From Chitinophagales bacterium (GTDB lineage Bacteria; Bacteroidota; Bacteroidia; Chitinophagales; Chitinophagaceae): a DNA stretch of 64,000 bases. The notes under the pieces are model-generated. The model was not told the origin of the DNA. It saw only the letters and a program-made list of their open reading frames with translations, and made no database searches. The translations under genes were made by a program, and so were the position numbers. This document shows positions 18,801-64,000 of the stretch, in pieces. Positions within the stretch are counted from its first letter, which is position 1. The number at the start of each line of letters is the position of its first letter. The stretch covers positions 9,940-73,939 of the forward strand of contig JBBSJI010000002.1 in the NCBI GenBank assembly GCA_038257425.1, written 5' to 3'.

Positions 18801-19247
18801 AATAATATTTGCAGAGAGTGTTTTGGGCAATACCACTTTTTCAAATAAAGCTTCGGGGTAAGTTATTATTGCACCAACCCTTTCACCTAACGGATTTGAA
18901 AATCTTGTGAGGCATTCTGTACGCAACATTACATGGCTTGCATTTAGCAGCCGGTAATTTTTTTTGTTCTTGAAAGAGGAGGGAAAGTAAAAGAGATTCA
19001 AAGCACTTGTAATATTCTCAAGCGTATTGTGAAAATAAGCAGCTTCTTCTGCATCCCGTAAGATTATAATGTGATTTAACTGCGATGCGGATTTATGATT
19101 AAAAACAGCCGAAACAATGAATGGAGCAGCACTTCCATAAAGACCCTTAAGCTGAATCTTTTGAGGATTGGATGCAGTAATCCTTTCCACTATTTTAAAA
19201 CAGCGGCTGTCATTTGCATACCCGTTCAACAACATTTCCAGATTCAT
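15840..19247 (-). CDS. mfd: transcription-repair coupling factor
   Basis: 1135 aa with SF2 helicase motifs (GDVGFGKTE, IIDEEQKFG, LTATPIPRT) and a UvrB-homology N-terminus. Confidence 0.96.
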   Translation of the reverse strand: MNLEMLLNGYANDSRCFKIVERITASNPQKIQLKGLYGSAAPFIVSAVFNHKSASQLNHIIILRDAEEAAYFHNTLENITSALNLFYFPSSFKNKKNYRLLNASHVMLRTECLTRFSNPLGERVGAIITYPEALFEKVVLPKTLSANIISIKQGDTIDTNSIYEKFVGYGFTRTDFVYEPGQFAVRGGILDIYSFGNEKPYRVELFGNEVDSIRIFDPESQLSERKLLQVSIIPNVETQFDSGEKVSIMEFLPENTVVWSEDWDFIKEKIQQQEEDLQLYLELLEQNPVAPTEEEDNYQSKTEVSATDFVKATVIEEQVKQRHIIEFGSKAYFANEKQETVLIPFSIKEQPAFNRNFDLLIKNLKEYEEKKYNIYLFADNPKQLERLHVIFTDLKAEVNVIPIPTSIHEGFIDDDLKTVCYTDHQIFQRYHKYKVKQAFSKNKALTLKMLRELQPGDYVTHIDHGVGVYSGLQKIEANGRMQEAVRIQYKDGDLLYVNISSLHKIGKYSGKEGTVPKINKLGSDVWNKLKDKTKKQVKDIATDLIKLYAQRKSQEGFAHSPDNYMQTELEASFIYEDTPDQGKATEDVKRDMEKPSPMDRLVCGDVGFGKTEIAIRAAFKTCCDGKQAAVLVPTTILAYQHFKTFGDRLKDFPVTVDFINRFKSAKEKKETMEKVAAGKIDIIIGTHALLNKNVKFKDLGIMIIDEEQKFGVAAKEKLKQLRTTVDSLTLTATPIPRTLQFSLMGARDLSIINTPPPNRQPIQTEVMVFNEDAIRDIIYYETERGGQVFFIHNRVNGLAEMKGFIQGLCPDVSIAYAHGQMDGDQLEDTILDFMDKKYDVLVCTNIVESGVDIPNVNTIIVNNAHQFGLSDLHQLRGRVGRSNKKAFCYLFAPPMSTLPVDSRKRLNTLEQYSDLGSGFQIAMRDLDIRGAGNMLGGEQSGFIAEIGFEMYQKILDEAIRELKRTEFKELFKAEIQQQDDFVTDCSIDTDLEILIPDSYVESITERLSLYSRLDNCGTEEDLQTFHREMTDRFGPIPNQVEDLFTTVRCRKIAVELGFEKMFLKNETLKCFFVSNPDSPYFQSEIFNGILLFLQTGTNKGKLKQVGKNGILVVENIQTMNDLFSFLDKMKKSTVQ

Positions 19248-19358
19248 CAGGGCGGCAAAGATAAGCCGAATAAAAAATGCAATACATATTGTGTTTAAAA
19301 TTGCAATATGAAGACAACTAAAACGTTAACTATGTTGTCTTATCAGGGGTTTAATGTA

Positions 19359-19366
19359 TATTTTTG
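19359..19366 (+). promoter_or_regulatory. candidate -7 box (TATTTTTG) for the S8 protease gene
   Basis: TAnnTTTG match 44 nt upstream of the ATG at 19410. The context TATATTTTTGyAACC is shared with the acpP upstream region. Confidence 0.3.
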
Positions 19367-19409
19367 TAACCGGGCTACTTAACAAAAAATCCAATGGCTA
19401 TATAACTAC

Positions 19410-22400
19410 ATGAAAAAATACTATTCATTCTTCTTTTTTCCGGTTCTGTTATTGAGTTATGTAGCTGTAACTGCCCAGGATAATGATATGCCTGTTCGTT
19501 TTGCAGCAGGCAATTTTATTACCGGCAATAATATTAAACGCCAAAGTTTTAATCCGGGCGGTCTCCAGGTTTCTCTTTATAAGAATAATTACTATGTTTT
19601 GGTTCAGTTTCTAAAATTGCCGTCTCTACAGGTTCAAAATGATTTAAGAATGGCAGGGCTGGATCTTGAAACCTATTTACCCGGCCATGCTTACCAGGCA
19701 ACTATAAATGGCAGTTTTGATTTTTCTCAGGCCAACAAGTACGGTATAATTTCTATAAATACTATTCCAGTCTTTTATAAAATTGATAAAGCAATTTTTA
19801 CTGTAAATGAATTTAATAAAAACGATCAATCATTAATAGCTGTCAGTTATTACGCTTCTTTAAACAAAACAGCAGTAATTATTGAATTGGAAAAAGCGGG
19901 TGCTGTAATAGTTGCTACAAAATTTTCAGCAACCAACGTGGTTTTTATACGGGCAGATCTCGGCTTGATACAAGCTATTGCATCGCTGCCTTTTGTAAGT
20001 TATGTGAGCTTGCAAAATTTAACCGATAAGCCATTAAATTATAAAAGCATCGGTAAGCATGCTGTAACCAGTTTGCTTTCGCCCTCAGGAAAAAACTTAA
20101 GTGGTAAAGGCATTGTGGTTGGTGTGGGCGATAATTCAGAAATTATTACACCGCATTTAGATTTTACGGGCCGGGTTATAAACCGGGTTCCATTTCCACT
20201 CAGTTTTCATGGCATACATGTTTCCGGAACTGTGGCCGGCGCAGGTTTATTGGATCCAAAACATAATGGCATGGCTCCCCGGGCTACCATTGTAAGCCAA
20301 TACCTGAGTGATATTATAACTTCAACACCAACCTATGTAACAGATTATAATATGGTTGTTACCAATAATTCATATACAAATGCTGAAGGCGGCTGTATAG
20401 GTACAGGGGCTTACGATGTAAGCAGTAATTATACTGATAAACAAATGGGGGATTATAAAAAATTGTTGCATGTTTTTGCTGCCGGTAATGATGGTAGTAA
20501 TACCTGTTCGCCTTATCCCTTATCATTTGCAACAATCAAATCGGGCTACCAGGTTGCAAAAAATGTTTTAACCGTTGGTGCTCTTGATACATTGTATGGC
20601 CCGGCCGTTTTTACCAGCCGTGGTCCGGTAAATGACGGCCGTTTAAAACCTGAAATTGTAGCAACGGGTGTGAATGTGTTTTCCACAAGACATGCTTTTG
20701 GTTACGAAAGAAGCAACGGCACCAGCATGTCATCACCAATTGTTGCCGGGGTAGCTACTTTGTTAAATGAGCAATACCGTAAATTCAATAGCAATGCTGT
20801 TCCCCAGGCATCATTAATAAAAGCAGTACTCTGCAATACAGCAGAAGATCTTGGCAACCCCGGCCCCGATTTTACTTTTGGTTTTGGAAATTTAAATGCA
20901 AGAAGAGCTGCTGAAACAATAGAAAATAACAGGTTCTATTTAAGTAGTACAACTCCTTCAACAAATGCTTTAACAGTACCTGTAGGTGTAAGGCGTTTAA
21001 AAGTGATGTTGTACTGGAACGATACTGCTGCTGCACCAAATGCTGCTACACAACTGATAAACGATTTTGATTTAACAGTTGTTGCACCGGGAAATATTAC
21101 ACATCAACCATTGATTTTAGATGCCACGCCAGCCAATGTTAATAACACGGCTTTTGAAGGCATTGACAGGATAAATAATATTGAGCAGGTTGTAATTGAT
21201 AACCCTGTTGCAGGTAGTTACGATGTAAATGTGAATGCATTTGCATTGCCATATGGCCCATGGGAATATGTGGTAACCTATCAAATGGATATGAATGGGG
21301 TAACTGTTGAGTATCCTTTCGGTGAAGAAAAAATGGTACCGGGTGAAACAGAAGTAATACGCTGGAATGCTTATGGTGATGAAGCAAATACTTTTACACT
21401 TGAATATTTTGATGGTAGTTCCTGGAACCTGATTAATAATAATGTACCTGCAGATGCACAGTCATATTACTGGGTTGTTCCATCAACTGTAAGTAATAAT
21501 TGTTTAGTAAGAGTTAGCAGGAATTCCTCTGCATATACTGATGTAAGTAATTTTAATTTCACCGTAATTGGCCAACCGGTGGTTGCGGCTACTATACCCT
21601 GTGATGGATTTGTGCAGTTGGATTGGCCTGCCACAAGCGGCACAACTTCTTATGATATCTGGCAGCTTAAAGCAGATACCATGGCCATCATTGGCAACAC
21701 TGCCAGCCTCTCTTATTTAATACCTGGCCTCAACAGTTCAACCACTTATTGGTTTGGAGTTAGTGCAAAGAACGGAACTGTTAATGGCAGAAGATCTGTT
21801 TCAAAGTCGGCATTGCCAGCAACAGGTGTTTGTACTTTATCCATTTTTGATAATAATATGAAAGCAGTTTCTGTTGATGCACCTGTTACAGGCAGGCAGT
21901 TTACATCTTCGGCTTTAACAGCATCTGAACAAATAAGATTCACCATTAAAAACCTGGATAATGTTGCCACTGCAGGGCCTTATGACTTGTACTATCAGAT
22001 AAATGGAGGCGCAACAATTATGGAAAGCAGTTCAGTTGCCATAGCAGCGTTGTCAACCCGTCAATATACTTTTACAACCACAGCCAATTTTTCCGCCCCC
22101 GGTATTTATACCATTAAAGCATGGGTTAAAAGAACCGGTGATACACATGTATTGGATGATACAGCAGCTTTAACCATAAAGCATTTGGCAAATGGGTTAG
22201 TTACGCTTCCTGTACTTGACGGATTTGAAAATGCATTGGCAAAGGATTATATAACTAATACCATTGGCCTGGACAGTATAGATCGTGTTGATTTTAAAGC
22301 AAACACAACAAGGGGCCGTGCCCGTACATTTGTAAACACCGGCTTTGCATTAAATGGAAGCAAGGCCATAACATTGGACCAGTTTCCCGTTGGGGCATTA

Positions 22401-25995: not shown

Positions 25996-26025
25996 CGCCC
26001 ACCCAAACCCTCCCGAATGGAGGGC
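25996..26025 (-). repeat. GC-hairpin unit D (reverse orientation)
   Basis: CGCCCACCCAAA + CCCTCC-CGAAT-GGAGGG. Begins at the base after the nuoA TAG stop. Confidence 0.8.
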
Positions 26026-26040: not shown

Positions 26041-26619
26041 ATGCGGAACAGCTTTTCAAATAATTCAGAGTCTTCAAAAGCCCCTCCGAAGGAGGGGCTT
26101 GGGGAGGCCTCTTTTCCGGGCCAGATACAGGAACTGCCCGGCGGGGGTATTGTATTAAGCAAGCTTGATGAGGTTATCAACTGGGCAAGGTCAAACTCTT
26201 TATGGCCGCTCACCTTTGCTACAAGTTGTTGCGGTATTGAAATGATGGCCGTAGCTTCTGCAAAGTATGATTTCTCAAGATTTGGATTTGAAGTGGCACG
26301 TGCTTCACCGAGGCAGGCAGATGTAATTATTATTGCCGGTACCATAGTAAATAAGATGGGACCGGTTTTAAAAAGATTGTACGACCAGATGGCTGATCCC
26401 AAATACGTGATCGCCATGGGGGCCTGTGCTATAAGTGGCGGACCTTTTTTTTATAATACTTATTCTGTTGTTAAAGGTGCAGATCATATTATACCGGTGG
26501 ATGTATATATACCCGGTTGCCCGCCAAGGCCCGAAGCACTGTTACATGCACTGATAAGCTTACAGGATAAAATAAAAGCCGGTATGACAAGAGAGCAAAT
26601 AAAGACCGGTAAAGAATAA
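26041..26619 (+). CDS. nuoB: NADH-quinone oxidoreductase subunit B
   Basis: Cluster-N2 ligand motifs [15 protein letters not shown] and IPGCPPRPE. The track start at 26017 lies in the loop of hairpin D, so I prefer the ATG at 26041. The N-terminus contains repeat unit E. Confidence 0.93.
26080..26109 (+). repeat. GC-hairpin unit E (forward), translated in nuoB
   Basis: GCCCCTCC-GAA-GGAGGGGC + TTGGGGAGGCC. Encodes [10 protein letters not shown] in the nuoB frame. Confidence 0.85.
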
Positions 26620-27081: not shown

Positions 27082-27106
27082 GCCCCCTCAATCCCCCGAA
27101 GGGGGA
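27082..27106 (-). repeat. GC-hairpin unit F (reverse)
   Basis: GCCCCCTCAA + TCCCCC-GAA-GGGGGA, starting 2 nt after the nuoC TAA stop. Confidence 0.8.
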
Positions 27107-27123
27107 AACAAAGCAAGAGAATA

Positions 27124-28278
27124 ATGTATAGAAATACTGATATAATTAGCGAAGGTTCTCAAAGCCCCTCCTTTGGAGGGGTTGGGGAGGCCGGTGATCT
27201 GATCATCAATGTAGGGCCGCAGCATCCTGCAACACATGGTGTATTGCACCTGGTGATCACCCTTAATGGTGAAACTATTAAAAAGGTAGAGCCGCACCTG
27301 GGTTATATTCACCGCTCTATTGAAAAAATGTGTGAGAGCCTCACCTACCGCCAATTCATTTATGTTACCAGCCGCATGGATTATCTCTCTGCCCATATCA
27401 ATAACCAGGCCTGTGCGTTAACGGTAGAGAAAGGTTTGCAGGTGGAGGTTCCCGAAAGGGCTCAAGTGATTAGAGTGCTTATGGCAGAACTTACAAGAAT
27501 TGCATCGCATGAATTATGGTGGGGTGCTATGGCCATGGATATTGGTGCGTTCACACCTTTCTTTCATGCGTTCAGGGAAAGAGAGACCATTAATGATATC
27601 ATGGAAGAAACCTGCGGTGCCAGGTTAACCATGAATTATATGGTGCCTGGTGGCGTAATGCAGGAACTGCATCCCGACTTTCAAAAGAAGGTAAAAGAAT
27701 TCATCACGCTCTTTAAATCGAAAGTGCATGAGTATGATGAAATGGTTACGGGTAATATTATTTTTCAAAACCGGATGAAGGGTGTAGGTATCTTATCAAA
27801 AGAAGATGCGATTTCTTTTGGTTGCACGGGCCCTACAGGCAGGGGGAGTGGCCTGAGTTGTGATATCAGGAAATTATATCCTTACGATGCTTATAGTAAA
27901 GTGCAGTTTGAGGAGATCATTGAAACAGCCGGCGATTCACTGGCCCGTTACATGGTACGCATAAAAGAACTGCATCAATCCATACATATAATAGAACAAT
28001 TGATAGATAATATTCCCGAAGGAGATTTTCAGGCTAAGACAAAAGCCGTTTTAAAATTACCCAAGGGTGAGTTTTACCAAAGAGTGGAAACAGCAAGAGG
28101 AGAGTTTGGTGTGTACATAGTAAGTGAAGGTGGCATGACACCTTACCGGATCAAATTCCGTTCACCAGGATTTTCAAATCTTTCAGCATTGGATCATATG
28201 GCAAGAGGGAGTAAGCTGGGAGATTTGGTGGCGATGATGGGAACACTTGATTTGGTGATACCGGATATTGACAGATAA
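27124..28278 (+). CDS. nuoD: NADH-quinone oxidoreductase subunit D
   Basis: 384 aa with NVGPQHPATHGVLHLV and C-terminal DLVIPDIDR. The N-terminus contains repeat unit G. Confidence 0.95.
   Translation: MYRNTDIISEGSQSPSFGGVGEAGDLIINVGPQHPATHGVLHLVITLNGETIKKVEPHLGYIHRSIEKMCESLTYRQFIYVTSRMDYLSAHINNQACALTVEKGLQVEVPERAQVIRVLMAELTRIASHELWWGAMAMDIGAFTPFFHAFRERETINDIMEETCGARLTMNYMVPGGVMQELHPDFQKKVKEFITLFKSKVHEYDEMVTGNIIFQNRMKGVGILSKEDAISFGCTGPTGRGSGLSCDIRKLYPYDAYSKVQFEEIIETAGDSLARYMVRIKELHQSIHIIEQLIDNIPEGDFQAKTKAVLKLPKGEFYQRVETARGEFGVYIVSEGGMTPYRIKFRSPGFSNLSALDHMARGSKLGDLVAMMGTLDLVIPDIDR
27164..27192 (+). repeat. GC-hairpin unit G (forward), translated in nuoD
   Basis: GCCCCTCC-TTT-GGAGGGG + TTGGGGAGGCC. 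Encodes SPSFGGVGEA. Near-identical to unit E. Confidence 0.85.
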
Positions 28279-28283
28279 AAAAA

Positions 28284-28372
28284 TAATAATGAACAAGGAA
28301 CAAGGAATCCCGAACAAGGAAGTGGGTATTCCGATTGTTATTCATAATTCCTTGTTCCTTGTTCGATATTCA
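28284..28372. repeat. tandem-arm long hairpin X1 (GAACAAG-repeat arms)
   Basis: Left arm AATAATGAACAAGGAACAAGGAAT, right arm ATTCCTTGTTCCTTGTTCGATATTCA, giving an 18-bp perfect stem. Fills the nuoD-nuoH spacer. Arms are identical to X2. Confidence 0.9.
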
Positions 28373-29453: not shown

Positions 29454-29476
29454 CCCCCAGCCCCCTGAAGGGGGAG
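29454..29476 (-). repeat. GC-hairpin unit H (reverse)
   Basis: CCCCCAG + CCCCC-TGAA-GGGGG, beginning at the base after the nuoH TGA stop. Confidence 0.75.
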
Positions 29477-29541: not shown

Positions 29542-30078
29542 ATGAGTGATGATTTAAAAAATAAAGACTTCAAAACTCCCCCCTTGGGGGGCGGGGGGGC
29601 TGGTTGGGGGGTTCAGTATTTTAAAGATATTTTCAATGCAATTAAGTCGCTGCTCATTGGCATGCGCCGTACAGGTTATTATTTTACGCATCACAAGGAG
29701 ATCATCACACAGCAATATCCTGATAACCGGGAAACATTGAATTTGCCGGAACGCTTTAAAGGCGAAGTGATCTTACTGCATGATGAAAACAATGAGCACG
29801 CCTGCACCGGTTGTACTGCCTGTGAGCTGGCATGTCCCAATGCAACTATAAAAATTGTTACGCAATTCGATATTACACCCGAAGGCAAAAAGAAAAAAGC
29901 ATTGGACAAATTTGTGTATCACCTTGAGCTGTGTACCTTATGCAATCTGTGTATCATCGCTTGCCCTACGGATGCTATAAAAATGGCACAGACATTTGAA
30001 CACAGTGTTTTTGACAGGGCAGAGCTGACTAAAATTTTAAATAAACCCGGTTCTAAAATAAGAGAAGGTATCGAGTAA
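29542..30078 (+). CDS. nuoI: NADH-quinone oxidoreductase subunit I
   Basis: Two CxxCxxCxxxCP motifs (CTGCTACELACP, CTLCNLCIIACP). The N-terminus contains repeat unit I. Confidence 0.93.
   Translation: MSDDLKNKDFKTPPLGGGGAGWGVQYFKDIFNAIKSLLIGMRRTGYYFTHHKEIITQQYPDNRETLNLPERFKGEVILLHDENNEHACTGCTACELACPNATIKIVTQFDITPEGKKKKALDKFVYHLELCTLCNLCIIACPTDAIKMAQTFEHSVFDRAELTKILNKPGSKIREGIE
29569..29611 (+). repeat. GC-hairpin unit I (forward), translated in nuoI
   Basis: TTCAAAA + CTCCCCCC-TT-GGGGGG + CGGGGGGGCTGGTTGGGGGG. Encodes KTPPLGGGGAGWG. Confidence 0.75.
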
Positions 30079-30139
30079 TAATCAGATGAGAAAAGAGAAA
30101 CAGTCGAAATGCTTAATTAATTAAGTTAAATCATAAAAT

Positions 30140-30186
30140 TAAAGCCCGGCCTCTCCCGATAATTATCGGGAGAACGAGGGTGAGGC
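30140..30186 (+). repeat. GC-hairpin unit J (forward, variant stem)
   Basis: GCCCGGCC + TCTCCCGAT-AATT-ATCGGGAGA + ACGAGGGTGAGGCC, in the nuoI-nuoJ spacer. Confidence 0.7.
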
Positions 30187-30204
30187 CATGATTGACCGGC
30201 CTGC

Positions 30205-30232
30205 TGTCATCCTGAGCGGTAGCGAAGGATCT
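30205..30232 (+). repeat. GTCATCCTGAGCGGTAGCGAAGGATCTC motif (half-unit of the third repeat family)
   Basis: Shares the GTCAnCCTGAG core with the left arm at 41151. Lies in the nuoI-nuoJ spacer. Confidence 0.4.
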
Positions 30233-30269
30233 CTTGCTGAGACTAAAAAATTGAATACGAATAATAGTT

Positions 30270-30845
30270 ATGACAGGATCTGCAATTATATTCTATTTAC
30301 TGGCCGCACTTACATTAGGAAGTGCATGGTTGGCTGTTACCACCAGGATGATCTTCAGGGCGGCAATTTATCTTTTGTTTGCGCTGATAGGTATTGCAGG
30401 TATTTATTTCTGGCTGCAATACGAATTTATTGCTGCTGTTCAGATCGTGGTGTATGTAGGAGGAATCGTAGTAATTATCATTTTTTCAATTTTCCTTACT
30501 CAGCAGGCAGGCGATCTTTTACCTAAACAGAAATTAGGCAGGCAAATATTTTCAGCACTGGCTGCATTTTGTGGAATGGCATTAGTAATGCTGCAGTTGG
30601 CACAACATGAATTTGTTGCAACTGCTAATGCTGCGATTGAACCTAGTGTAGCCAATATCGGATACCAGATGTTGGGAACAGATGATAATGGTTATGCATT
30701 GCCATTTGAAGTGGTAAGTATTTTATTGCTGGCTGCATTGATCGGTTGTATTGTGATTGCGGCCCCCTCTGAACTTCGTTCTTTCCCTGGCGGGAACCCC
30801 AAAGGGGGAGAAAAAACCCTTAGTTCAACCGAAAATAATACTTGA
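30270..30845 (+). CDS. nuoJ: NADH-quinone oxidoreductase subunit J
   Basis: 191 aa with 5 TM segments, positioned between nuoI and nuoK. The last ~27 aa are read through repeat unit L. Confidence 0.9.
   Translation: MTGSAIIFYLLAALTLGSAWLAVTTRMIFRAAIYLLFALIGIAGIYFWLQYEFIAAVQIVVYVGGIVVIIIFSIFLTQQAGDLLPKQKLGRQIFSALAAFCGMALVMLQLAQHEFVATANAAIEPSVANIGYQMLGTDDNGYALPFEVVSILLLAALIGCIVIAAPSELRSFPGGNPKGGEKTLSSTENNT
30761..30810 (-). repeat. GC-hairpin unit L (reverse; compound/degenerate), translated as the nuoJ tail
   Basis: GGCCCCCTCTGAA (compare unit K, GGCCCCTCTAAA) + TTCCC-TGGC-GGGAA + CCCC-AAA-GGGG. Encodes AAPSELRSFPGGNPKGGE. Confidence 0.45.
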
Positions 30846-30883: not shown

Positions 30884-30916
30884 GTCCTCCCTTTCGGGGA
30901 GGATTTAGGAGGGGCC
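30884..30916 (+). repeat. GC-hairpin unit M (forward)
   Basis: TCCTCCC-TTTCG-GGGAGGA + TTTAGGAGGGGCC, ending 2 nt before the nuoK ATG. Confidence 0.75.
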
Positions 30917-30918
30917 GC

Positions 30919-31236
30919 ATGATGATAGAACCTGGACTATATCAATTGCTTTTTATTAGTACTGCACTGTTCTTCATTGGTGTGTACGGGTTCTTTACCC
31001 GGCGCAACCTCGTTACTATGCTCATGAGTGTTGAGTTGATATTGAACAGCGTGAACCTGAATTTTATTGCATTCAATAAATATTTGTGGTACGACAAACT
31101 GGATGGAGTTTTCTTCACCATTTTTATTATTGCCATTGCAGCCGCAGAAGCGGCGGTTGCCATAGCTATCATAATTAATTTATACCGAAGTCATAAATCT
31201 ATTGATGTGGAGAATGCGGAAGAGATGAAATTTTAA
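30919..31236 (+). CDS. nuoK: NADH-quinone oxidoreductase subunit K
   Basis: 105 aa with 3 TM segments and conserved Glu residues in the membrane helices (SVELILNS, AAAEAAV). Confidence 0.92.
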   Translation: MMIEPGLYQLLFISTALFFIGVYGFFTRRNLVTMLMSVELILNSVNLNFIAFNKYLWYDKLDGVFFTIFIIAIAAAEAAVAIAIIINLYRSHKSIDVENAEEMKF

Positions 31237-31239
31237 TAA

Positions 31240-31270
31240 CCTCACCCCAACCCCTCTCCAAAGGAGAGGG
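31240..31270 (-). repeat. GC-hairpin unit N (reverse)
   Basis: CCTCACCCCAA + CCCTCTCC-AAA-GGAGAGGG, 3 nt after the nuoK TAA stop. Its flank is the exact reverse complement of the unit O flank. Confidence 0.85.
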
Positions 31271-31383
31271 AACTGGGAGATCGAAGCGGTGAGGTGCGGA
31301 GAATTCAGTTTTAGTTTTAAAAGTTTAGGTCTTAATTTGGAACAATGATTCAAAATTTGAGAAGTATTTTTTAATAACCGATA

Positions 31384-31422
31384 TCAAACCCCCTCTCTTT
31401 AAGGAGAGGGTTGGGGTGAGGT
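31384..31422 (+). repeat. GC-hairpin unit O (forward)
   Basis: TCAAA + CCCCCTCTC-TTTAA-GGAGAGGG + TTGGGGTGAGGT, ending 4 nt before the nuoL ATG. Confidence 0.85.
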
Positions 31423-31426
31423 AATA

Positions 31427-33445
31427 ATGCCAAACACAACTTACATAACACTGATCATCTTGCTGCCACTGGCAGGCTTTATAATGCTTGGGCTTTTTGG
31501 TAGAAGATATTTTACTAAAACCTCCGGCGTTATAGGAACAGCATTGTTATTGGTTTCAACCCTGCTTGCCTTACATACTGCTTATAGCTATTTCTTTGAG
31601 TATGGAAAAGTGAATGGTGTTTATCAAAAATTAGTTCCACTTAAATATACATGGTTACAATTTTCCGAGGGCGTATCAATTGATATGGGGATCATCATCG
31701 ATCCCATCTCTGTAATGATGCTAATAGTGGTATCCTTTATTTCTTTAATGGTGCATATCTATAGCCTTGGTTATATGAAAGGCGATGAAAGATTCCCTAC
31801 TTATTTTGCATTCCTGGGGTTGTTTACTTTTTCTATGCTGGGACTGGTTATTTCTTCTAACATTTTCCAGATCTATATTTTTTGGGAGCTGGTGGGTGTT
31901 TCCTCTTTCCTGCTGGTTGGCTATTATTATGATAAACCCAGTGCAGTTGCTGCCTGCAAAAAAGCTTTTATTGTAACAAGGTTTGCCGATGTGGGCTTTT
32001 TGATCGGCATTTTAATCCTGTCTTTTTATTCAGGCACATTAGATTTTAATACATTGATCGCAACACTCACTTCTCCTGAAACCAATGGCTATAAAAATGC
32101 AGTGGCAGCATCTTTCCTGGGTGTTTCTGCATTAACCTGGGGATTAGTATTAGTGTTCATCGGTGCTGCTGGCAAGAGTGCGATGTTTCCTTTACATATC
32201 TGGCTGCCCGATGCGATGGAAGGCCCAACACCAGTCTCAGCATTGATACATGCTGCTACCATGGTGGTTGCCGGCGTTTTTTTAGTGGCAAGATTATTTC
32301 CCGTGTTTGCCATTTCAGCTCCCGGGGCTTTGAGCCTTGTTGGTTATGTTGGCGCCATCTCTGCATTATTTGCAGCAGTGATAGCCTGCACACAAACAGA
32401 TATTAAACGGGTGTTGGCTTATTCCACGATGAGCCAGATAGGATACATGATGTTTGCACTAGGTGTTTCAAAATACGGTGGCGAGGAAAGCCTGGGTTAC
32501 ACCGCATCTATGTTTCATTTGTTCACACATGCCATGTTTAAAGCATTGTTGTTTTTAGGCGCAGGTGCTGTAATACATTATATACACAGCAACGAAATGA
32601 AAGACATGGGTGGGTTAAGAAAATATTTACCCATCACCCATATTACTTTTTTAATTGCCTGCCTGGCTATTGCAGGTGTGCCGCCGTTTGCAGGGTTCTT
32701 CAGCAAAGAAGAGATCCTATTGGCTGCTTATCAAAATAACCAGGCCATTTACTGGATAGCATTGATCACTTCCGGCTTAACAGCTTTTTATATGTTCCGT
32801 TTGTACTTCAATATTTTCTGGAGCAAAGACCATCACGCACATACTCAACAGCATGCTACCGAGTTGAAATCTGAAATTACGGAAGCTGTGGCTCCCTCTC
32901 CTTTGGAGAGGGAGGGGGGTGAGGTCCATAAAGGTGAAGGTGGATTTACTATGATGATGCCTTTAGTATTATTAGCTATTGGCGCAGCAGCTGCAGGCTT
33001 TATTCCTTTCGGTCATTTTGTTAGCTCCGATGGAACAAGGCTGGAAGCTGAATTCCATTTGCAGTTTTCCATTGCTCCTGTGGCACTTGGACTGGCAGGA
33101 ATTTTTATTGCTATGTGGATGTATAAAAAAGAAAATAATAAACCCGATAGGTTTGTTGCTTCGCTGCATGGGTTATACAAAGCGGCTTATCATAAATTCT
33201 ATATTGATGAGATCTATTTGTTCATCACAAAAAAAATAATTTTTAATCTCATCGGCAGGCCGGCAGCATGGTTTGATAAAAATGTAGTTGATGGAATGGT
33301 GAATGCAACCGGCAATGGCACAAAAGATATTTCAGAAATTATAAAAAGTTTTCAATCAGGTAAGGTACAGCAATATGCTATTTACTTTTTGGTAAGTGTT
33401 ATTGGCCTGGCATTGCTGTTTATATACGTTTGGAACCCCCGCTAA
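31427..33445 (+). CDS. nuoL: NADH-quinone oxidoreductase subunit L
   Basis: 672 aa antiporter-like subunit with a long C-terminal extension. Contains in-frame repeat unit P. Confidence 0.95.
   Translation: MPNTTYITLIILLPLAGFIMLGLFGRRYFTKTSGVIGTALLLVSTLLALHTAYSYFFEYGKVNGVYQKLVPLKYTWLQFSEGVSIDMGIIIDPISVMMLIVVSFISLMVHIYSLGYMKGDERFPTYFAFLGLFTFSMLGLVISSNIFQIYIFWELVGVSSFLLVGYYYDKPSAVAACKKAFIVTRFADVGFLIGILILSFYSGTLDFNTLIATLTSPETNGYKNAVAASFLGVSALTWGLVLVFIGAAGKSAMFPLHIWLPDAMEGPTPVSALIHAATMVVAGVFLVARLFPVFAISAPGALSLVGYVGAISALFAAVIACTQTDIKRVLAYSTMSQIGYMMFALGVSKYGGEESLGYTASMFHLFTHAMFKALLFLGAGAVIHYIHSNEMKDMGGLRKYLPITHITFLIACLAIAGVPPFAGFFSKEEILLAAYQNNQAIYWIALITSGLTAFYMFRLYFNIFWSKDHHAHTQQHATELKSEITEAVAPSPLEREGGEVHKGEGGFTMMMPLVLLAIGAAAAGFIPFGHFVSSDGTRLEAEFHLQFSIAPVALGLAGIFIAMWMYKKENNKPDRFVASLHGLYKAAYHKFYIDEIYLFITKKIIFNLIGRPAAWFDKNVVDGMVNATGNGTKDISEIIKSFQSGKVQQYAIYFLVSVIGLALLFIYVWNPR
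32891..32925 (+). repeat. GC-hairpin unit P (forward), translated inside nuoL
   Basis: GCTCCCTCTCC-TTT-GGAGAGGGAG + GGGGGTGAGGT. Encodes APSPLEREGGEV. The first 22 nt are identical to unit C in ileS. Confidence 0.85.
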
Positions 33446-33523: not shown

Positions 33524-33563
33524 CGCTCCTTCCCTATCGGGGAAGGAGAAGGAGGATGGGGCC
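33524..33563 (+). repeat. GC-hairpin unit Q (forward)
   Basis: CTCCTTCCC-TATCG-GGGAAGGAG (9-bp stem) + AAGGAGGATGGGGCC. Overlaps the first possible nuoM ATG. Confidence 0.75.
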
Positions 33564-35040: not shown

Positions 35041-35052
35041 CATTGCTAAATA

Positions 35053-35158
35053 AATAATGAACAAGGAACAAGGAATTTCGAATGATGAGCGTCCGCAAGC
35101 GTCTGCGGAGAATTTCGAACTTCTGAAGTCAATATTCCTTGTTCCTTGTTCGATATTC
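35053..35158. repeat. tandem-arm long hairpin X2
   Basis: Same 24-nt and 26-nt arms as X1, with a longer centre containing an inner hairpin TCCGCA-AGCGTC-TGCGGA and a direct repeat GAATTTCGAA x2. Fills the nuoM-nuoN spacer. Confidence 0.9.
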
Positions 35159-35168
35159 AAATAAAAAT

Positions 35169-36569
35169 ATGCTAAATGATTTTTTAATATTAATGAAACC
35201 TGAACTGCTGTTAACCGGTATCATTTTCCTGTTGCTGTTCATCAAGATCGGCAAAGGTTTAAAAAATGATACCATGCTGTTATTGGTACAGGTGCTGTTA
35301 TTACTGAATTTTATTTTCGGTTTCTTTTTTAATACAGATGGCTCATTGTTTGATGGTATGTACGTAACTACAAACATGATCGTGTTGCAGAAAAGTATTC
35401 TAAGCCTGGGTGTTTACCTGATCTCTTTATTATTTGCAGATTGGTTTAAGAAAAGTGAACACATGCCCGAGTTCTTTATGCTGATGTTATCAGCATTGCT
35501 GGGTATGTTCTTCCTTATTTCGAGCGGTAACCTGCTGATGTTCTTTTTAGCTTTGGAATTATCTACTATTCCCGTAGCTGCCATGGCAAATTTCGATCTT
35601 GATAAAAAAAGATCTTCTGAAGCGGCCATGAAGATGATCCTGTCTTCGGCATTCTCTTCCGGTATTTTATTGTTTGGTATTTCATTGATATATGGAGCAA
35701 CCGGTACAATCAGTTTTGCTGAAATTCCACAGCAGCTTAATGGCAGCCCTTTACAGATCCTTGCATTGGTATTCCTGTTTTCAGCATTTGCTTTTAAATT
35801 ATCTATTGTTCCCTTTCATTTATGGACGGCAGATGTATATGAAGGATCACCGATGGCTGTTACTTCGTTTCTTTCTGTTATATCCAAAGGAGCTGTTGCA
35901 TTTATTTTTATGGCAACACTGTATAAAGTGTTTCAGCCCATGCAGGAAACCTGGTACAACCTGGTGATGATCCTGTCCATAGCTACCATGATCATCGGTA
36001 ACCTGTTTGCATTACGTCAACAAAATATAAAACGCTTTCTTGCCTTTTCCTCCATTGCTCAGGTTGGTTTTATTTTAGTAGGTATCAGCAGTAATTCCAT
36101 TGAAGGAACAACATCGGTTGTTTATTTTATTTTGATCTATGTGTTTTCAAACCTGGCAGCATTTGGTGTGGCTGCAGCCATTGCAGCAAAAGCTAACCGG
36201 GAAAATATTGATGATTATAAAGGTTTGTACCAGACCAATCCTTTCCTGAGCTGGGTATTGGCACTGGCTTTATTTTCACTGGCCGGTATTCCGCCAACTG
36301 CAGGCTTCTTTGGTAAATTATTCTTATTAACTGCCGGTGCATCAAAAGGCAGCTATCTTTTCATTACGATTGCTGCACTAAATATGATCATTTCCCTGTA
36401 TTATTATTTACGTGTTGTACGGTCTGTGTTTATGGAAAAGAATGAACAGCCGGTAGAAAAAGTGGCGATCGAACCCTCTGCAAAATTTGCATTGATCATT
36501 TGCAGCGCAGGCATAATTTTAGTTGGCTTATTAAGCTGGATATATGATTACATACAAAACCTGGTTTAG
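35169..36569 (+). CDS. nuoN: NADH-quinone oxidoreductase subunit N
   Basis: 466 aa antiporter-like subunit. I moved the start to 35169 because the track start at 35139 translates the X2 repeat arm. Confidence 0.93.
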   Translation: MLNDFLILMKPELLLTGIIFLLLFIKIGKGLKNDTMLLLVQVLLLLNFIFGFFFNTDGSLFDGMYVTTNMIVLQKSILSLGVYLISLLFADWFKKSEHMPEFFMLMLSALLGMFFLISSGNLLMFFLALELSTIPVAAMANFDLDKKRSSEAAMKMILSSAFSSGILLFGISLIYGATGTISFAEIPQQLNGSPLQILALVFLFSAFAFKLSIVPFHLWTADVYEGSPMAVTSFLSVISKGAVAFIFMATLYKVFQPMQETWYNLVMILSIATMIIGNLFALRQQNIKRFLAFSSIAQVGFILVGISSNSIEGTTSVVYFILIYVFSNLAAFGVAAAIAAKANRENIDDYKGLYQTNPFLSWVLALALFSLAGIPPTAGFFGKLFLLTAGASKGSYLFITIAALNMIISLYYYLRVVRSVFMEKNEQPVEKVAIEPSAKFALIICSAGIILVGLLSWIYDYIQNLV

Positions 36570-36643
36570 AAGTTTAGGAGTTTAGAAGATTAGTTGAGTA
36601 ATCTCCTGGACCCTAAACCCCTAAACCCCTAAACCCCTAAACT
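36564..36643. repeat. tandem-arm hairpin Y with CCCCTAAA octamer array
   Basis: The left arm GTTTAGAAGTTTAGGAGTTTAGAAG opposes the right arm CCCTAAACCCCTAAACCCCTAAACCCCTAAACT. Overlaps the nuoN stop and ends 5 nt before the next ATG. Confidence 0.8.
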
Positions 36644-51400: not shown

Positions 51401-54400
51401 ATGTCAAAGAAATCACAACCTGCAAAAGGACTACAGTTTACACGGCAGTTTACTAAAGATGACGTTAGTCCATTCGATATGTTTGAGTATGACTACCGTA
51501 CTTCCGTAATTAAAAATCCATCAGGCGAAATTGTTTTCCAGATGGATAATGTGGAAGTTCCAAAACAATGGAGCCAGATCGCTACGGATATTCTGGCACA
51601 GAAATATTTCAGGAAAGCAGGCGTACCTAAAGAAGATGGTACAACAGGTAGAGAAACAACTGTTAAACAGGTTGCACATCGTATGGCTCATTGCTGGCGT
51701 GTATGGGGTGAACGTTATGATTATTTTGCAACAGCAAATGATGCACTTATTTTTTATGATGAGTTGGTGTACTCAATTTTAAACCAGGCCTGCGTACCCA
51801 ACAGTCCGCAATGGTTTAACACCGGCCTGCACGAAGTGTATGGCATTACCGGAAAACCACAGGGCCATTATTATGTAGATGCAAAAGACGGCCAGTTAAA
51901 AAAATCGGCTAATGCTTATGAGCGTCCGCAACCTCATGCCTGCTTTATTTTAAGTGTTAATGACGATCTGGTTAATGAAGGTGGCATCATGGATCTTTGG
52001 GTACGGGAAGCAAGAATATTTAAATATGGTAGTGGTGTAGGTACCAACTTCAGCAGCATCCGTGGCGAAGGTGAAAAATTAAGCGGTGGTGGTACATCAA
52101 GCGGCTTAATGAGTTTCTTAAAAATTGGCGACCGTGCCGCAGGTGCTATTAAAAGTGGTGGTACAACAAGAAGGGCAGCCAAAATGGTTTGTCTGGATCT
52201 TGATCACCCCGAAATTGAAAAGTTTATTAATTGGAAAGTTCAGGAAGAAGATAAGGTTGCTGCTTTAATAGCTGCTGGTTATGCCAGCGATTATGAAGGT
52301 GAAGCTTACAGAACAGTAAGTGGACAAAACAGCAACAACTCCATCCGCATACCAAATGAGTTCTTTAAAATTTTGGATGAAGATGGTGAATGGGAACTTA
52401 AAGGCAGAAGTGATGGAAGGGTAATGAAAAAAGTAAAGGCAAAGGAATTATGGGAGCAGATCACTTATGCCGCATGGCGTTGTGCTGATCCCGGCACACA
52501 ATATGATACTACCATCAACGAATGGCATACCTGCCCCGAAGGTGGTCCCATCAGGGCTTCTAACCCCTGTAGTGAATACATGTTCCTGGATAACACGGCC
52601 TGTAATTTAGCCAGTGTTAATCTTCGCCAGTTCTTTGATGAAAGCGATAACAGCTTTAATGTAGCCGGTTTTGAACATACCTGCCGCTTATGGACAGTTG
52701 TTTTAGAAATATCTGTTTTAATGGCGCAGTTCCCGTCAAAAGAAGTTGCTCAATTAAGTTACGATTACAGAACACTTGGATTAGGATTTGCAAACCTGGG
52801 CTCTATGTTAATGGTAAGCGGTATTGCTTACGATAGTGAAGAGGCAAGAGGTATTGCAGGGGCTATTACCGCCATCATGACCGGGGTATCTTATAAAACT
52901 TCAGCAGAGCTTGCAAGCTTTTTAGGCGCATTTGATAAGTACGAAGAAAATAAAGTGCACATGTTACGTGTAATGCGTAACCATCGTGCTGCAGCTTACG
53001 ATGCAGCTGATGCATACGAAGGCATTGAAATAAAACCACAGGGTATCAACGCAAAATATTGTCCTGATTATTTATTGAAAGCCGCCACCAAGGCATGGGA
53101 TGATGCCGTGCAAATGGGAGAGAAGTACGGCTACCGCAATGCACAAACAACCGTAATTGCCCCAACAGGCACTATTGGCCTGGTAATGGATTGCGATACA
53201 ACCGGTGTTGAACCTGATTTTGCCTTGGTGAAATTTAAAAAATTAAGTGGTGGTGGTTATTTCAAGATCATTAACCAGAGTGTGCCACAGGCTTTGCGTA
53301 ATTTAAAATACAGCGAAAAAGAAATTGAAGAAATAGTTGCTTATGCAAAAGGACATGCATCTCTTGATAAATCTCCTTTCATTAATACAAAAACATTAAT
53401 AGAGAAAGGTTTTACACAGGAAGATATAGATAAACTGAATGGAGTATTAGGTGCAGCTTTCGAGATCGGCTTTGTTTTCAATCAATATACCTTGGGTGAA
53501 GCCTGCCTGGAAAGACTTGGATTTAAACCTGAGCAATACCAGGATTTTGGCTGGAGCTTACTGGAAGCTTTAGGATTCAGTGATGAAGAAATTGAAGCAG
53601 CTAATATTTACATCTGCGGTACTATGACGGTTGAAGGCGCTCCTTATTTAAAAGACGAGCATCTTTCAGTATTTGATTGTGCTAACAAATGCGGACAGAT
53701 TGGCGAGCGTTTCATTCATGCACACGGACATATCCGTATGATGGGTGCTGCACAACCTTTCTTAAGTGGCGCCATTTCTAAAACGATCAACCTGCCAAAC
53801 GAAGCCACACAGGATGAAATTGCAGACTCGTACAGGTTAAGCTGGGAGCTGGGTTTAAAAGCCTGTGCTTTATACCGTGACGGTTCTAAATTATCACAAC
53901 CATTAAGCAACAAGAGCGATAAGAAAAAGAAACTTGATGAAGCGATCAGTGAAGAGAATGCAGCAGCATTGGCCGCTGATATTTCTACCATGGTTGATAT
54001 GGGTAAGTTAACTATTGATGACCTGCTGGATGAAATGAACAAGCGTGTGCAGAACAGCGCCGATACAACCTTAAAGCGCCAGCTGGCCATGATCGTTGAA
54101 AGGCGTGCATTACCAGCCAAGCGCAGGGGCTTTACACAAAAAGCAAAAATAAACGGGCAGGCATTGTTCCTGCGTACCGGTGAATATAATGACGGAACCT
54201 TAGGAGAAATATTTATTGATATGGCCAAAGAAGGCGCTACCATGCGTAGTATGCTCAACTGTTTTGCCATAGCTATTTCTATCGGCCTCCAATATGGTGT
54301 GCCTTTAGAGGAGTATGTTGAGAAATTTGTTTTCACCCGTTTTGAGCCAAGCGGTATGGTTGATCATCCGAATATCAAGAGCGCAACATCCATTATTGAT

Positions 54401-54763
54401 TTTATCTTCCGTTCACTGGCCTATGAATATTTAGGTAGAAACGATTTAGTTCATGTATTGGATGCACCCGAAGTACAAAATTTAGGTAACGCAGAGTGGG
54501 ACCAGAATACACCTACCATTGGCGACCGTAAACCTGAGCTGAGTGAAGTGAGGGTGATTGCAGGCGCAACCAATGGTGCAACACAACCGGCCCAGCACCG
54601 CACTGCTCATGTAAAAGCACCGAATGGTATGGATGCCGTAAATGCAGCAGCTAAAAGCATGCAAAGCGATGCACCTGCCTGCAATACATGCGGACATATA
54701 ACAGTACGCAGCGGCACCTGTTACAAATGCCTGAATTGTGGTAATAGTATGGGCTGTAGTTAG
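51401..54763 (+). CDS. nrdJ: adenosylcobalamin-dependent (class II) ribonucleotide reductase
   Basis: 1120 aa with active-site regions NPCSEY and TNFSSIRGEGEKLSGGG. C-terminal Cys-rich tail CNTCGH...CYKCLNCG. Confidence 0.93.
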   Translation: MSKKSQPAKGLQFTRQFTKDDVSPFDMFEYDYRTSVIKNPSGEIVFQMDNVEVPKQWSQIATDILAQKYFRKAGVPKEDGTTGRETTVKQVAHRMAHCWRVWGERYDYFATANDALIFYDELVYSILNQACVPNSPQWFNTGLHEVYGITGKPQGHYYVDAKDGQLKKSANAYERPQPHACFILSVNDDLVNEGGIMDLWVREARIFKYGSGVGTNFSSIRGEGEKLSGGGTSSGLMSFLKIGDRAAGAIKSGGTTRRAAKMVCLDLDHPEIEKFINWKVQEEDKVAALIAAGYASDYEGEAYRTVSGQNSNNSIRIPNEFFKILDEDGEWELKGRSDGRVMKKVKAKELWEQITYAAWRCADPGTQYDTTINEWHTCPEGGPIRASNPCSEYMFLDNTACNLASVNLRQFFDESDNSFNVAGFEHTCRLWTVVLEISVLMAQFPSKEVAQLSYDYRTLGLGFANLGSMLMVSGIAYDSEEARGIAGAITAIMTGVSYKTSAELASFLGAFDKYEENKVHMLRVMRNHRAAAYDAADAYEGIEIKPQGINAKYCPDYLLKAATKAWDDAVQMGEKYGYRNAQTTVIAPTGTIGLVMDCDTTGVEPDFALVKFKKLSGGGYFKIINQSVPQALRNLKYSEKEIEEIVAYAKGHASLDKSPFINTKTLIEKGFTQEDIDKLNGVLGAAFEIGFVFNQYTLGEACLERLGFKPEQYQDFGWSLLEALGFSDEEIEAANIYICGTMTVEGAPYLKDEHLSVFDCANKCGQIGERFIHAHGHIRMMGAAQPFLSGAISKTINLPNEATQDEIADSYRLSWELGLKACALYRDGSKLSQPLSNKSDKKKKLDEAISEENAAALAADISTMVDMGKLTIDDLLDEMNKRVQNSADTTLKRQLAMIVERRALPAKRRGFTQKAKINGQALFLRTGEYNDGTLGEIFIDMAKEGATMRSMLNCFAIAISIGLQYGVPLEEYVEKFVFTRFEPSGMVDHPNIKSATSIIDFIFRSLAYEYLGRNDLVHVLDAPEVQNLGNAEWDQNTPTIGDRKPELSEVRVIAGATNGATQPAQHRTAHVKAPNGMDAVNAAAKSMQSDAPACNTCGHITVRSGTCYKCLNCGNSMGCS

Positions 54764-63980: not shown

Positions 63981-64000
63981 ATGCATTTTGGAATTTTAGG

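Follow-up and report, generated by a model that had tools for sequence, protein, structure and literature searches.

Triplex-motif repeats read in frame within nuoL, ileS and other genes of a Chitinophagaceae bacterium, and their association with DUF559 nuclease genes

The triplex motifs of Escherichia coli have been known since the 1990s, and their function, origin and spread are unexplained. Earlier called BoxC and PIT (potential intrastrand triplex), they now go by the name TMECO, with the consensus 5'-CCCTCNCCC N3-6 GGGNGAGGG N3 GGGNGAGGG, in the definition of which one mismatched triad is tolerated, and 3610 copies have been counted in 262 proteobacterial genomes, with numerous G/C-rich motifs reported from cyanobacteria as well (Holder et al. 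2015, PMC4666352). E. coli K-12 has 23 TMECOs, described as 'always intergenic', five of which form inverted pairs, while the number per E. coli strain varies from 1 to 29 and Salmonella lacks them; no link to phages, plasmids or mobility genes was seen, and their sites show raised local variability between strains, for which 'instability' was proposed (PMC4666352). Here we report that a unit of this kind, about 33 nt long, lies within nuoL and ileS in a 64,000-nucleotide stretch of a Chitinophagales bacterium (assembly GCA_038257425.1, contig JBBSJI010000002.1, positions 9,940 to 73,939; hereafter the window), where it is apparently translated, and that in other genomes related units bracket genes for a putative nuclease of the DUF559 family.

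Several other families of small elements invite comparison. Rickettsia palindromic elements (RPEs) are AT-rich, about 100-150 bp long, recognised by family-specific hidden Markov models, restricted to Rickettsia and without a mirror tail, and we know of no nuclease associated with them. Insertion in frame, with translation, is what the window unit appears to share with RPEs (Ogata et al. 2000), but it is not a member of that family, being about 33 nt long, from Bacteroidota and unrelated in sequence. The GC clusters of yeast mitochondria and the small dispersed repeats (SDRs) of Nostoc, the latter reportedly described by Elhai and co-workers in 2008, are GC-rich hairpin repeats of very small size, about 20-40 nt, which act like mobile elements in AT-richer genomes and may be located within genes; both differ from the unit in sequence and in having no mirror tail, and to our knowledge no linked nuclease has been described for either. 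The REP/REPIN-RAYT system (Bertels & Rainey 2011, PMC3116915) is likewise built on a short hairpin unit; the form that probably moves is an inverted doublet, and the enzyme gene proposed to move the units in trans is present in one copy, flanked by units. Its enzyme is however an HUH tyrosine transposase, not a Vsr-like PD-(D/E)XK nuclease, and REPs are extragenic and have no triplex tail. Vsr-like (EDxHD) homing endonucleases, such as I-Bth0305I and those of 'fractured genes', are selfish nucleases of the Vsr fold found at conserved sites in essential or DNA-metabolism genes, but they reside in group I introns or between split-intein halves, where splicing restores the host protein (PMC3239194, PMC2677866). 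The DUF559 cassettes described below would differ in this respect, since their reading frames indicate residence in the host frame via unit-encoded linkers, with neither intron nor intein.

Judged by its NuoL and IleS relatives, the window, which has a G+C content of about 40%, is from Ferruginibacter (Chitinophagaceae, Bacteroidota), the assembly being a metagenome-assembled genome; the unit counts given for it refer to these 64 kb of an 82-kb contig. By curated NCBIfam cut-offs, nuoL (31427-33445, + strand, 672 aa) matches NF005141 with 638 bits (cut-off 556) and ileS (240-3740, - strand, 1166 aa) matches TIGR00392 with 999 bits (cut-off 621). A sequence-only reading of this DNA had noticed a 22-mer common to these two genes, and we find GCTCCCTCTCCTTTGGAGAGGG exactly where it had been placed, at 3053-3074 in ileS and 32891-32912 in nuoL, on the + strand in both cases; 100 dinucleotide-preserving shuffles produced no chance match. 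The flank GGGGTGAGGT follows two bases later (CT) in the ileS copy and three bases later (AGG) in the nuoL copy, and the two copies are read in opposite orientations, as ...AVAPSPLEREGGEVHKG... in NuoL (sense) and ...KTSPQPSPKEREQHPAV... in IleS (antisense), all as that reading had it. The similarity extends well beyond the two loci: a third copy of the 22-mer, with one mismatch, lies at 31252-31273 (-) within a unit at 31236-31273 (-), another unit lies at 31391-31425 (+), and about a dozen variant units are present in ileS and the nuo operon.

The four close copies, at 3053-3088 (+), 31236-31273 (-), 31391-31425 (+) and 32891-32926 (+), are built alike: (C)CCCTCTCC, a loop TTT(G), GGAGAGGG(G), 2-3 nt and a tail GGGGTGAGG(T). 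More generally, a C/T arm is followed by a loop of 3-4 nt, a complementary G/A arm, a spacer of 2-3 nt and a G-rich tail that mirrors the G/A arm, with T replacing one A. The sequence-only reading had overlooked this design, by which the unit can be assigned to the published BoxC/PIT/TMECO family. The hairpin formed by CCCTCTCC and GGAGAGGG is present in all four, and DNA folding gave -7.9 to -10.8 kcal/mol for three of them (z about -2.5 to -3.1) and a weaker -6.9 kcal/mol (z -1.55) for the copy before nuoL (31388-31428). The second G-rich block mirrors the G arm in the manner of the class II purine motif, where G faces G and A is faced by either A or T. Compared with the TMECO consensus and Table 1 of PMC4666352, eight of nine triads are identical and in the same order, the missing triad being the one beside loop 1. 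The likeness thus embraces a near-identical sequence, CCCTCTCC(C)-loop-(G)GGAGAGGG-N3-GGGTGAGG(G), with a purine mirror tail and one T opposite A, and it extends to many dispersed copies, high turnover, a wide range in Proteobacteria and Cyanobacteria, and inverted pairs, of which the window holds five (31236/31391, 25999/26081, 27083/27165, 29454/29578 and 2973/3053). Unlike the units of E. coli, which are reported to be always intergenic, off phages and plasmids and without mobility genes nearby, those described here are from Bacteroidota, have eight triads rather than nine, occur as many covarying variants, lie in frame in essential genes, can be found on plasmids and on viral contigs, and flank DUF559 genes on both sides; the window pairs moreover face outward, whereas the E. 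coli pairs of Table 1 face inward (PMC4666352).

The strongest sequence-level support for a three-strand architecture as the conserved property of the family is that all three blocks covary, which they do across at least six variants, among them CCCTCTCC / GGAGAGGG / GGGGTGAGG, CCCCTCC / GGAGGGG / GGGGAGG, TCTCCCC / GGGGAGA / AGAGGGG, CCTTCCCC / GGGGAAGG / GGATGGGG and CTCCTTCCC / GGGAAGGAG / GAGGATGGG. A generic finder for class II triplexes, written as C-arm, loop, G-arm, loop and mirrored tail, returned 39 matches in 1.57 Mb of Chitinophagaceae DNA, 10 of them within the window, against none in three shuffles and 13 when a direct tail was substituted for the mirrored one. A relaxed version recognised 16 units in the window, so that at least 16 units or relics are present in 64 kb, several of them read through in frame (in ileS, nuoL, nuoB, nuoD and nuoI). 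By analogy with TMECO, the unit as a single strand can presumably fold as a hairpin plus third strand. We consider it very probable that the unit is both a member of the BoxC/PIT/TMECO family and a translated passenger in host genes; the family is known, and it is the in-frame residence inside essential genes of Bacteroidota that is a new behaviour. No Rfam family matched, either over the whole window at gathering thresholds or over 31150-33000 in E-value mode, and matches of miRNA models across an inverted pair were rejected as sub-threshold and due to chance. A variant with a fixed hairpin mismatch, CCCCTCGCC opposite GGAGAGGGG with G opposite A, recurs from E. coli (the 'mm' types of Table 1) to viral contigs (L009, L031, L041, L051, L055, L063, L077, L082, L095, L099 and L109). 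This is odd for a plain hairpin, and Vsr-type enzymes are mismatch nucleases; a role of the variant as substrate is an idea only.

Beyond the window the family is widespread. A viral contig collection, searched with a degenerate tail-anchored pattern, yielded at least 120 stretches with at least 141 units on contigs with a G+C content of 0.34-0.71, and plasmid BLAST gave 30 records, mostly cyanobacterial with others from Prevotella, Hymenobacter, Sulfitobacter and Cupriavidus, some of the matches lying under annotated coding sequences (CDSs); curated phage records gave one match. When contigs of four soil and sediment metagenomes were aligned to the window and depth was read per position, depth rose 5- to 50-fold exactly over units, at 3054-3086, 32891-32926, 2717-2747 and 2965-2995. 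The sequences flanking the spikes are unrelated, beginning at 3054 and at 3085/3086 in the case of the ileS unit, which implies many other copies in other contexts (joints in this mapping stem from other genomes at 85% likeness). One further claim of the sequence-only reading, that the spread was recent, is not supported by these data. The identical 22-mer is present at the same nuoL loop in L123, the corresponding locus of another Ferruginibacter species, and on the unrelated viral contig L030, and the unit core shows hardly any variation among contigs of 34-71% GC or in cyanobacterial plasmids; an identity of 22/22 is therefore no clock, the core being constrained or homogenised. That the identity is a property of the family master sequence, and not a sign of recent transfer from nuoL to ileS, is partly supported: the two copies would be identical as copies of the current master sequence, which may be held constant by the constraint of three-way pairing or by replacement of whole units.

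The unit in nuoL (32891-32926, +) is read in sense orientation as APSPLEREGGEV, with the C-arm at 32893-32901, the loop at 32902-32904, the G-arm at 32905-32913 and the mirror tail GGGGTGAGG at 32916-32924. It is an insertion relative to orthologues and sits between FYMFRLYF and EGGF.MM, where it forms a gap against the NdhF structure PDB 6hum_F in a loop between two transmembrane helices. Among 120 NuoL orthologues of 83-100% identity, 63 have a short loop, FWNKE-AHVHGEHKG-EGGF, and this insert-free form is 644 aa long, while 50 carry a triplex-motif (TM) unit there, read as PSPLERAGGEV, SPSPLERGWGEV or SPSPQGEGRGEV and in some cases with nested extra segments. In the remaining 7 (P0036, P0059, P0064, P0086, P0089, P0099 and P0115) the same loop holds an unrelated insert of 10 aa, PSFAKATAGK or variants of it, which suggests that several repeat families can land in this loop or are tolerated there. 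Inserts in this loop are in frame in every case. Filled and empty forms are interleaved among relatives, and a filled and an empty orthologue can share as much as 97.9% identity in the rest of the protein. In DNA, the comparison of L123, with GCTCCCTCTCCTTTGGAGAGGGCGGGGGGTGAGGTG, and L124, with AAAGAATCGCATGTA, shows 36 nt in L123 replacing 15, a net gain of 21 nt. As a separate observation, a nested hairpin element with the core GAACTTCGTTC..TTCCCT..GGGAAC lies inside loop 1 of the triplex unit in NuoL of P0005, P0016, P0021 and P0041, where the protein reads ..LSETKNGSEA.., and forms of it occur at 30761-30827 of the window, near 8833 in L121 and in the nuoC-nuoD spacer of L123.

In ileS the region between VAMFKA and FFMAWTTTPW is short in most Chitinophagaceae and expanded in the clade of the window. 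The unit at 3053-3088 (+), antisense to the gene and read as TSPQPSPKEREQ, is without counterpart in most Chitinophagaceae IleS. It forms an outward-facing pair, 50 nt apart and just before the editing motif AWTTTPWTLPSN, with a degenerate unit at 2973-3002 (-), read in sense as IHPSGGGGA, which the triplex finder misses and which was called by alignment; clear TM units occupy the orthologous position in L127, L147 and L196. A third insertion site, at 2719-2748 (-), holds a degenerate unit, ISPSGGGGAIPW, in a loop where L164 and L172 also have units but which most relatives have in a short form, and a relic at 1778-1799 (-), GNPFPFGKGWDGAF, is orthologous to the intact CCTTCCCC/GGGGAAGG/GGATGGGG of L125 and L126. 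Where the window has ACCTCACCCC-AG-CCCTCTCC-AAAG-GAGAGGG, L126, L128, L131, L136 and L139 have CCTCCCC-AA-CCCCTCC-GAAG-GAGGGG at the same site; all three blocks differ together, which points to replacement of a whole unit by another variant. ileS is moreover a hot spot: in 80 ileS loci, 15 of 21 strict units fall inside the gene, whose share of the sequence is 19% (binomial P = 2e-7), and they cluster at five recurrent positions.

How a repeat can be tolerated in so many genes follows in part from its composition. That the unit is open on both strands, as had been proposed, is correct insofar as five of six frames are free of stops in both intragenic copies, and the cause is that the arms consist of C and T only or of G and A only. 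The six-frame test that the sequence-only reading had suggested gave the same result across the family for five frames, which are mostly open, and the opposite for the sixth: the only recurrent stop is the TGA of GGTGAGG, in one forward frame. Among the 141 viral units in the matches listed, the forward frames without this TGA are open in 93% and 98% and the reverse frames in 91%, 67% and 91%, and putative coding copies use all five open frames (ORF-based coding calls in viral contigs, 36 of the 141 listed, are unreliable at high GC and show frame use only; ORF, open reading frame). In Chitinophagaceae DNA 25 of the 39 units lie within long ORFs, the figure for random 33-mers being 73%. Coding sequence is thus not closed to units as it is in E. 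coli, and those of nuoL, ileS, nuoB, nuoD and nuoI are in frame rather than intergenic; the loci covered include strains of Terrimonas, Lacibacter and Sediminibacterium. Five stop-free frames together with selection for frame make insertion in frame possible, and selection retains frame-preserving copies alone. As their reading frames indicate, the units are translated as peptides of about 11 residues, rich in Pro, Ser, Gly and Glu, in variable surface loops or at the N-termini of essential proteins.

A lead on how the units might spread came from the spacer between nuoD and nuoH. In a four-way alignment of the window operon with the related loci L121, L122 and L123, L122 has an ORF of 120 aa between inverted units at 7005-7030 and 7461-7487, in L121 these inverted units enclose a short stretch of non-coding DNA, and L123 has an empty site; filled and empty alleles thus exist here, as they do between nuoA and nuoB. 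The ORF encodes a DUF559 protein (PF04480, E = 7e-30) related to PDB 3hrl (E = 5e-13), and in the literature DUF559 and Vsr are assigned to one PD-(D/E)XK clade, to which a group I intron homing endonuclease also belongs. With an alignment of two Chitinophagaceae DUF559 sequences we fetched 80 metagenome loci, 66 of them with at least 150 nt on both sides. Units bracket these genes far above chance: one lies within 200 nt upstream in 48 of the 66 and downstream in 47, the upstream unit is on the - strand in 44 and the downstream one on the + strand in 44, and both hold, giving an outward-facing pair, in 37, while among 592 control windows taken at a distance of 300 nt or more, 20 (3.4%) contain even one unit. 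The median gap between gene and unit is 61 nt upstream and 36 nt downstream. Bracketed genes are seen, for instance, in L122, L134 and L205.

The cassette ends are not uniform. The closest relatives of the L122 gene all share ends of five triads, one lineage has distinct ends (left CCCTTCTCC/GGGATGAGG, right CCCCTCTCC/GGGGTGAGG), and the exact window unit CCCTCTCCTTTGGAGAGGGCTGGGGTGAGG is the cassette end in L252, L256 and L260; L122-like nucleases (at least 64% identical) occur in several flanking contexts, judged by visual inspection of the flanking sequences. In E. coli K-12, ycjD, a DUF559 gene with a downstream unit alone, ends about 170 nt from TMECO #9, which has the same downstream orientation. 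The association appears to be undescribed so far: we found no paper that links DUF559 to BoxC/PIT/TM or to mobility, or that reports TM units in frame, subscription papers (Hoyne 2000, 2002; Bachellier) being outside the scope of the search. Two details of individual loci may be recorded here. In the K-12 locus itself (L286; NC_000913.3, 1351040-1351830) the last codons of ycjD contain a degenerate unit, which is followed by a partial duplicate of the ycjD 3' end and then by TMECO #9, and in L234 and L236 alternating units (TCCCCCTTTGAAGGGGGATTTAGGGGGA on the - strand, CCTCCCTTCGAAGGGAGGCGGGGGAGGGA on the + strand) recur every 150 nt or so around the DUF559 gene, in a manner that resembles REP mosaics.

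DUF559 genes also lie in frame within other genes. In 25 of the 80 loci the DUF559 frame runs on for at least 40 codons on both sides, in 7 it continues downstream alone and in 34 the gene is free-standing; hosts among the 25 include LeuRS (about 12 loci, at the same site), MetH (4) and a MetRS-like gene (3-4). The leuS gene of L134 is an ORF of 1101 aa (18856-22161, -) with a DUF559 homologue in frame between two units just before TTRPDT, the insert of about 160 aa comprising two unit-encoded linkers and a DUF559 domain of about 110 aa, which by length would leave no room for a Hint domain. Inserts at this site, between NWIGKS..GAE..F and ..TTRPDTIFG, are found also in L232, L233, L235, L243, L250, L252, L254, L271, L278, L283 and L285, with DUF559 domains 38-46% identical to the L122 protein. 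We take the ileS pair at 2973-3088, before the CP1 editing motif, to be at the position homologous to this insertion site. In L218, L219, L220 and L222, DUF559 is fused in frame through SSPFRGRGG to HisF (LAKRIIPCLDVKDGR...) in ORFs of 388-395 aa, the right-hand unit serving as linker and the start codon of HisF being replaced. A CDS on a Pseudanabaena plasmid has units, DUF559 and more units in frame just before DPACGSGHF, presumably methyltransferase motif I. The window pairs around the starts of nuoB, nuoD and nuoI have the geometry of the DUF559-HisF fusions without the nuclease, and native N-termini have been replaced at these starts, with L121 showing the empty or native state.

Taken together, these observations are best explained, in a reading that we think rather better than even, by a triplex-motif unit which is translated in frame and spread via DUF559 cassettes. 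In the proposed course of events, the units would be the two ends of a small mobile cassette, with a gene for a Vsr-like PD-(D/E)XK nuclease between outward-facing units. Much as in homing, cleavage of a target by the nuclease would be followed by repair that copies the cassette into it, for which support is at the level of the fold (PF04480, PDB 3hrl, the Vsr clade). The cassette could then read through its right-hand unit into the host gene and so reside there in frame, internal deletion would give gutted pairs such as those in ileS (2973-3088), between nuoK and nuoL and at nuoB, nuoD and nuoI, and further deletion would leave solo units, as in nuoL. Turnover of units between relatives is rapid, and filled, gutted and empty alleles all exist. 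On the narrower point that DUF559 drives the spread of units we find the scales about level. Slightly more tentative is the fuller proposal that the units are terminal repeats of an unrecognised class of mobile cassette with a DUF559 nuclease, which invades genes in frame (LeuRS, MetRS, MetH, HisF, methyltransferases and nuo genes) without intron or intein, such that solo units, gutted pairs and the 23 TMECOs of K-12 would be relics or non-autonomous derivatives. Under that proposal cassettes may persist in translated form because their ends are stop-free in five frames and encode flexible Pro/Ser/Gly linkers, and because a start codon can come from the cassette itself, with read-out into the host gene.

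Several observations weigh against this account. There is no DUF559 gene in the 64-kb window nor in the viral unit loci listed (at least 120), and HMM (hidden Markov model) searches for relics of one between the ileS units and upstream of the nuoL unit gave scores of -4.4 to -5.5 with i-E of 13-120; likenesses noticed by eye (KIFSAIAESS to ..VLNTIKEAISS, and ATELKSEITEA to the A+ELR..MTEAE head) were dropped on account of these negative scores. Filled and empty sites show no target-site duplication or clean junction, and insertions look like replacements. The association would be equally consistent with DUF559 genes that home into unit pairs already in place and do not mobilise them, and the 80 loci were drawn with two Chitinophagaceae queries, with no taxonomy assigned to the loci. 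All 50 NuoL units share orientation and frame, which one old insertion with losses or allelic exchange would fit equally as well as repeated insertion. Translation of the units is argued from frame conservation alone, the locus having turned up in no RNA run, and the TMECO triplex forms in vitro as single-stranded DNA and has gone undetected in vivo (PMC4666352).

The chief rival to cassette-borne spread dispenses with an enzyme: the folded single strand would stall replication, and template switching or ectopic gene conversion would make, swap and delete units, DUF559 genes merely accumulating at such fragile sites. The replacements without target duplications, the whole unit swapped at the ileS site, the many units with no nuclease nearby and, in E. 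coli, the tie to local variability with no transposase near the units (PMC4666352) all sit well with such a process. It leaves unexplained, however, why 37 of 66 DUF559 genes lie between outward-facing units at median gaps of 61 and 36 nt, why the type of end follows that of the nuclease, one lineage having a left end unlike its right, and how a near-identical 33-mer came to be in unrelated phyla and on viral contigs, and we judge it unlikely. More doubtful again are units as host cis-elements under selection, for ribosome binding, translation coupling or mRNA/DNA structure, with the intragenic copies as by-products. Their G-rich tail does resemble a Shine-Dalgarno sequence, and at least four window units, always in sense, end 0-4 nt before starts (nuoJ at 30189, nuoK, nuoL and nuoM), as is likewise the case in L121-L123. 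Bacteroidota, however, make little use of Shine-Dalgarno pairing, unit positions differ between operons that are 86% identical, units lie also after stops, inside loops and antisense, and there is no Rfam match; a host function, translation initiation for example, may nevertheless hold for the units that end 1-4 nt before the starts of nuoK, nuoL and nuoM. TMECOs of E. coli are more often upstream than downstream of ORFs (PMC4666352), but PIT elements have been reported to have neither promoter nor terminator activity.

Mobilisation in trans by some other enzyme, such as a RAYT (as for REP/REPIN) or one of IS200/IS605 type, would account for short hairpin units that are single and in inverted pairs, like REPINs. 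Yet REPs and REPINs are defined by their association with RAYT, and here DUF559 is the sole recurrent gene seen between pairs of units (no search was aimed at RAYT or transposases). The units, as far as we can tell, are also without the conserved GT[AG]G head of REPs, and we regard this possibility as improbable. Least credible of all is that the two genes converged on a PSPLER..GEV-like peptide or that the units are assembly artefacts at a repeat. Logan contigs do break inside units, and such repeats can mislead assemblers, but on either side of each unit one and the same gene carries on in frame, and independent assemblies of other species have the same inserts at the same loops. As to convergence, the sequence-only reading had preferred copying, and rightly so: the unit also occurs between genes and is read in different frames and orientations, and opposite reading orientations together with intergenic copies exclude convergent coding, so that this last alternative is already refuted.

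If spread by DUF559 is correct, it would give a large domain of unknown function its first function. The range of the BoxC/PIT/TMECO family now includes Bacteroidota and viral contigs, and its in-frame life in essential genes places it beside the Rickettsia palindromic elements as a second such case, of much smaller size and far wider distribution, in which units repeatedly give rise to variation in the loops and N-termini of conserved proteins. There are consequences for annotation as well, in that units lengthen ORFs, displace start codons and interrupt assemblies. In run X1, from the source metagenome, Logan contigs start or end inside units, at 3057-3078 and 32891-32927, which is why units can be said to fragment assemblies and to be able to mislead gene callers; the NuoL of the window has been called as 661 aa rather than 672 aa.

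The remaining units of the window lie mostly in its nuo operon, which is 86% identical to that of L121, with differences that are mainly small G+C-rich insertions on either side. The outward-facing pair between nuoK and nuoL consists of the unit at 31236-31273 (-), directly after the nuoK stop, which is conserved in L123, represented by a different variant in L121 and absent from L122, and the unit at 31391-31425 (+), which ends 1 nt before the nuoL ATG (31427); in L121 and L123 a related unit ends 4 nt before this ATG. Around the nuoB start codon (26017) a pair at 25999-26024 (-) and 26081-26107 (+) encodes an N-terminal extension, and the corresponding nuoA-nuoB site is empty in L121 and filled with other unit variants in L122 and L123. 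The pair around the nuoD start codon (27124), at 27083-27106 (-) and 27165-27190 (+) and thus spanning 27083-27190, replaces the native N-terminus MFEEVGTTTE of L121 and L122. At nuoI (start codon 29542) the pair is at 29454-29474 (-) and 29578-29597 (+), with G-runs continuing to 29616, and a 62-nt insert there is absent from L121, L122 and L123.

Single variant units precede three further genes of the operon. At 30153-30188 (+) the variant TCTCCCGAT..ATCGGGAGA-ACG-AGGGTGAGG lies directly before an in-frame ATG at 30189, which corresponds in the alignment to the start of nuoJ in L121 and L122 (in the mechanical ORF list nuoJ begins at 30270 instead). This unit is the 3' end of a cassette of about 115 nt (window 30077-30188), consisting of GAAATGCTTAATTA...AAAGCCCGGCC and a unit ending AGGGTGAGG, which is found also before nuoJ and nuoL in L121, before nuoL in L123 and before nuoC in L122, in one orientation throughout. 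The variant TCCTCCC/GGGAGGA/AGGAGGGG at 30885-30914 (+) ends 4 nt before the nuoK ATG (30919), and CTCCTTCCC/GGGAAGGAG/GAGGATGGG at 33526-33561 (+) ends 4 nt before the nuoM ATG. Outside the operon, TCTCCCC/GGGGAGA/AGAGGGG at 54765-54791 (-) lies directly after the stop of the ORF at 51401-54763.

The window holds other repeats as well. When nuoJ is taken to start with the ATG at 30189, its 5' end includes an insert of 82 nt (30194-30275) containing GTCATCCTGAGCGGTAGCGAAGGATCTC; L121-L123 lack this insert, which has the look of a further family of small repeats. An unrelated family of AT-rich inverted repeats (AATGAACAAGGAACAAGGAAT and its complement) is present in the nuoD-nuoH spacer (28280-28372), in the nuoM-nuoN spacer (35042-35168) and near the end of the window (63951-63985), with a related copy in L122. 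Finally, two octamer arrays follow nuoN, GTTTAGAA repeated 3.8 times at 36564-36593 and CCCTAAAC repeated four times at 36611-36642; they are near reverse complements of each other, and similar arrays lie between nuoH and nuoI in L121 and L123.

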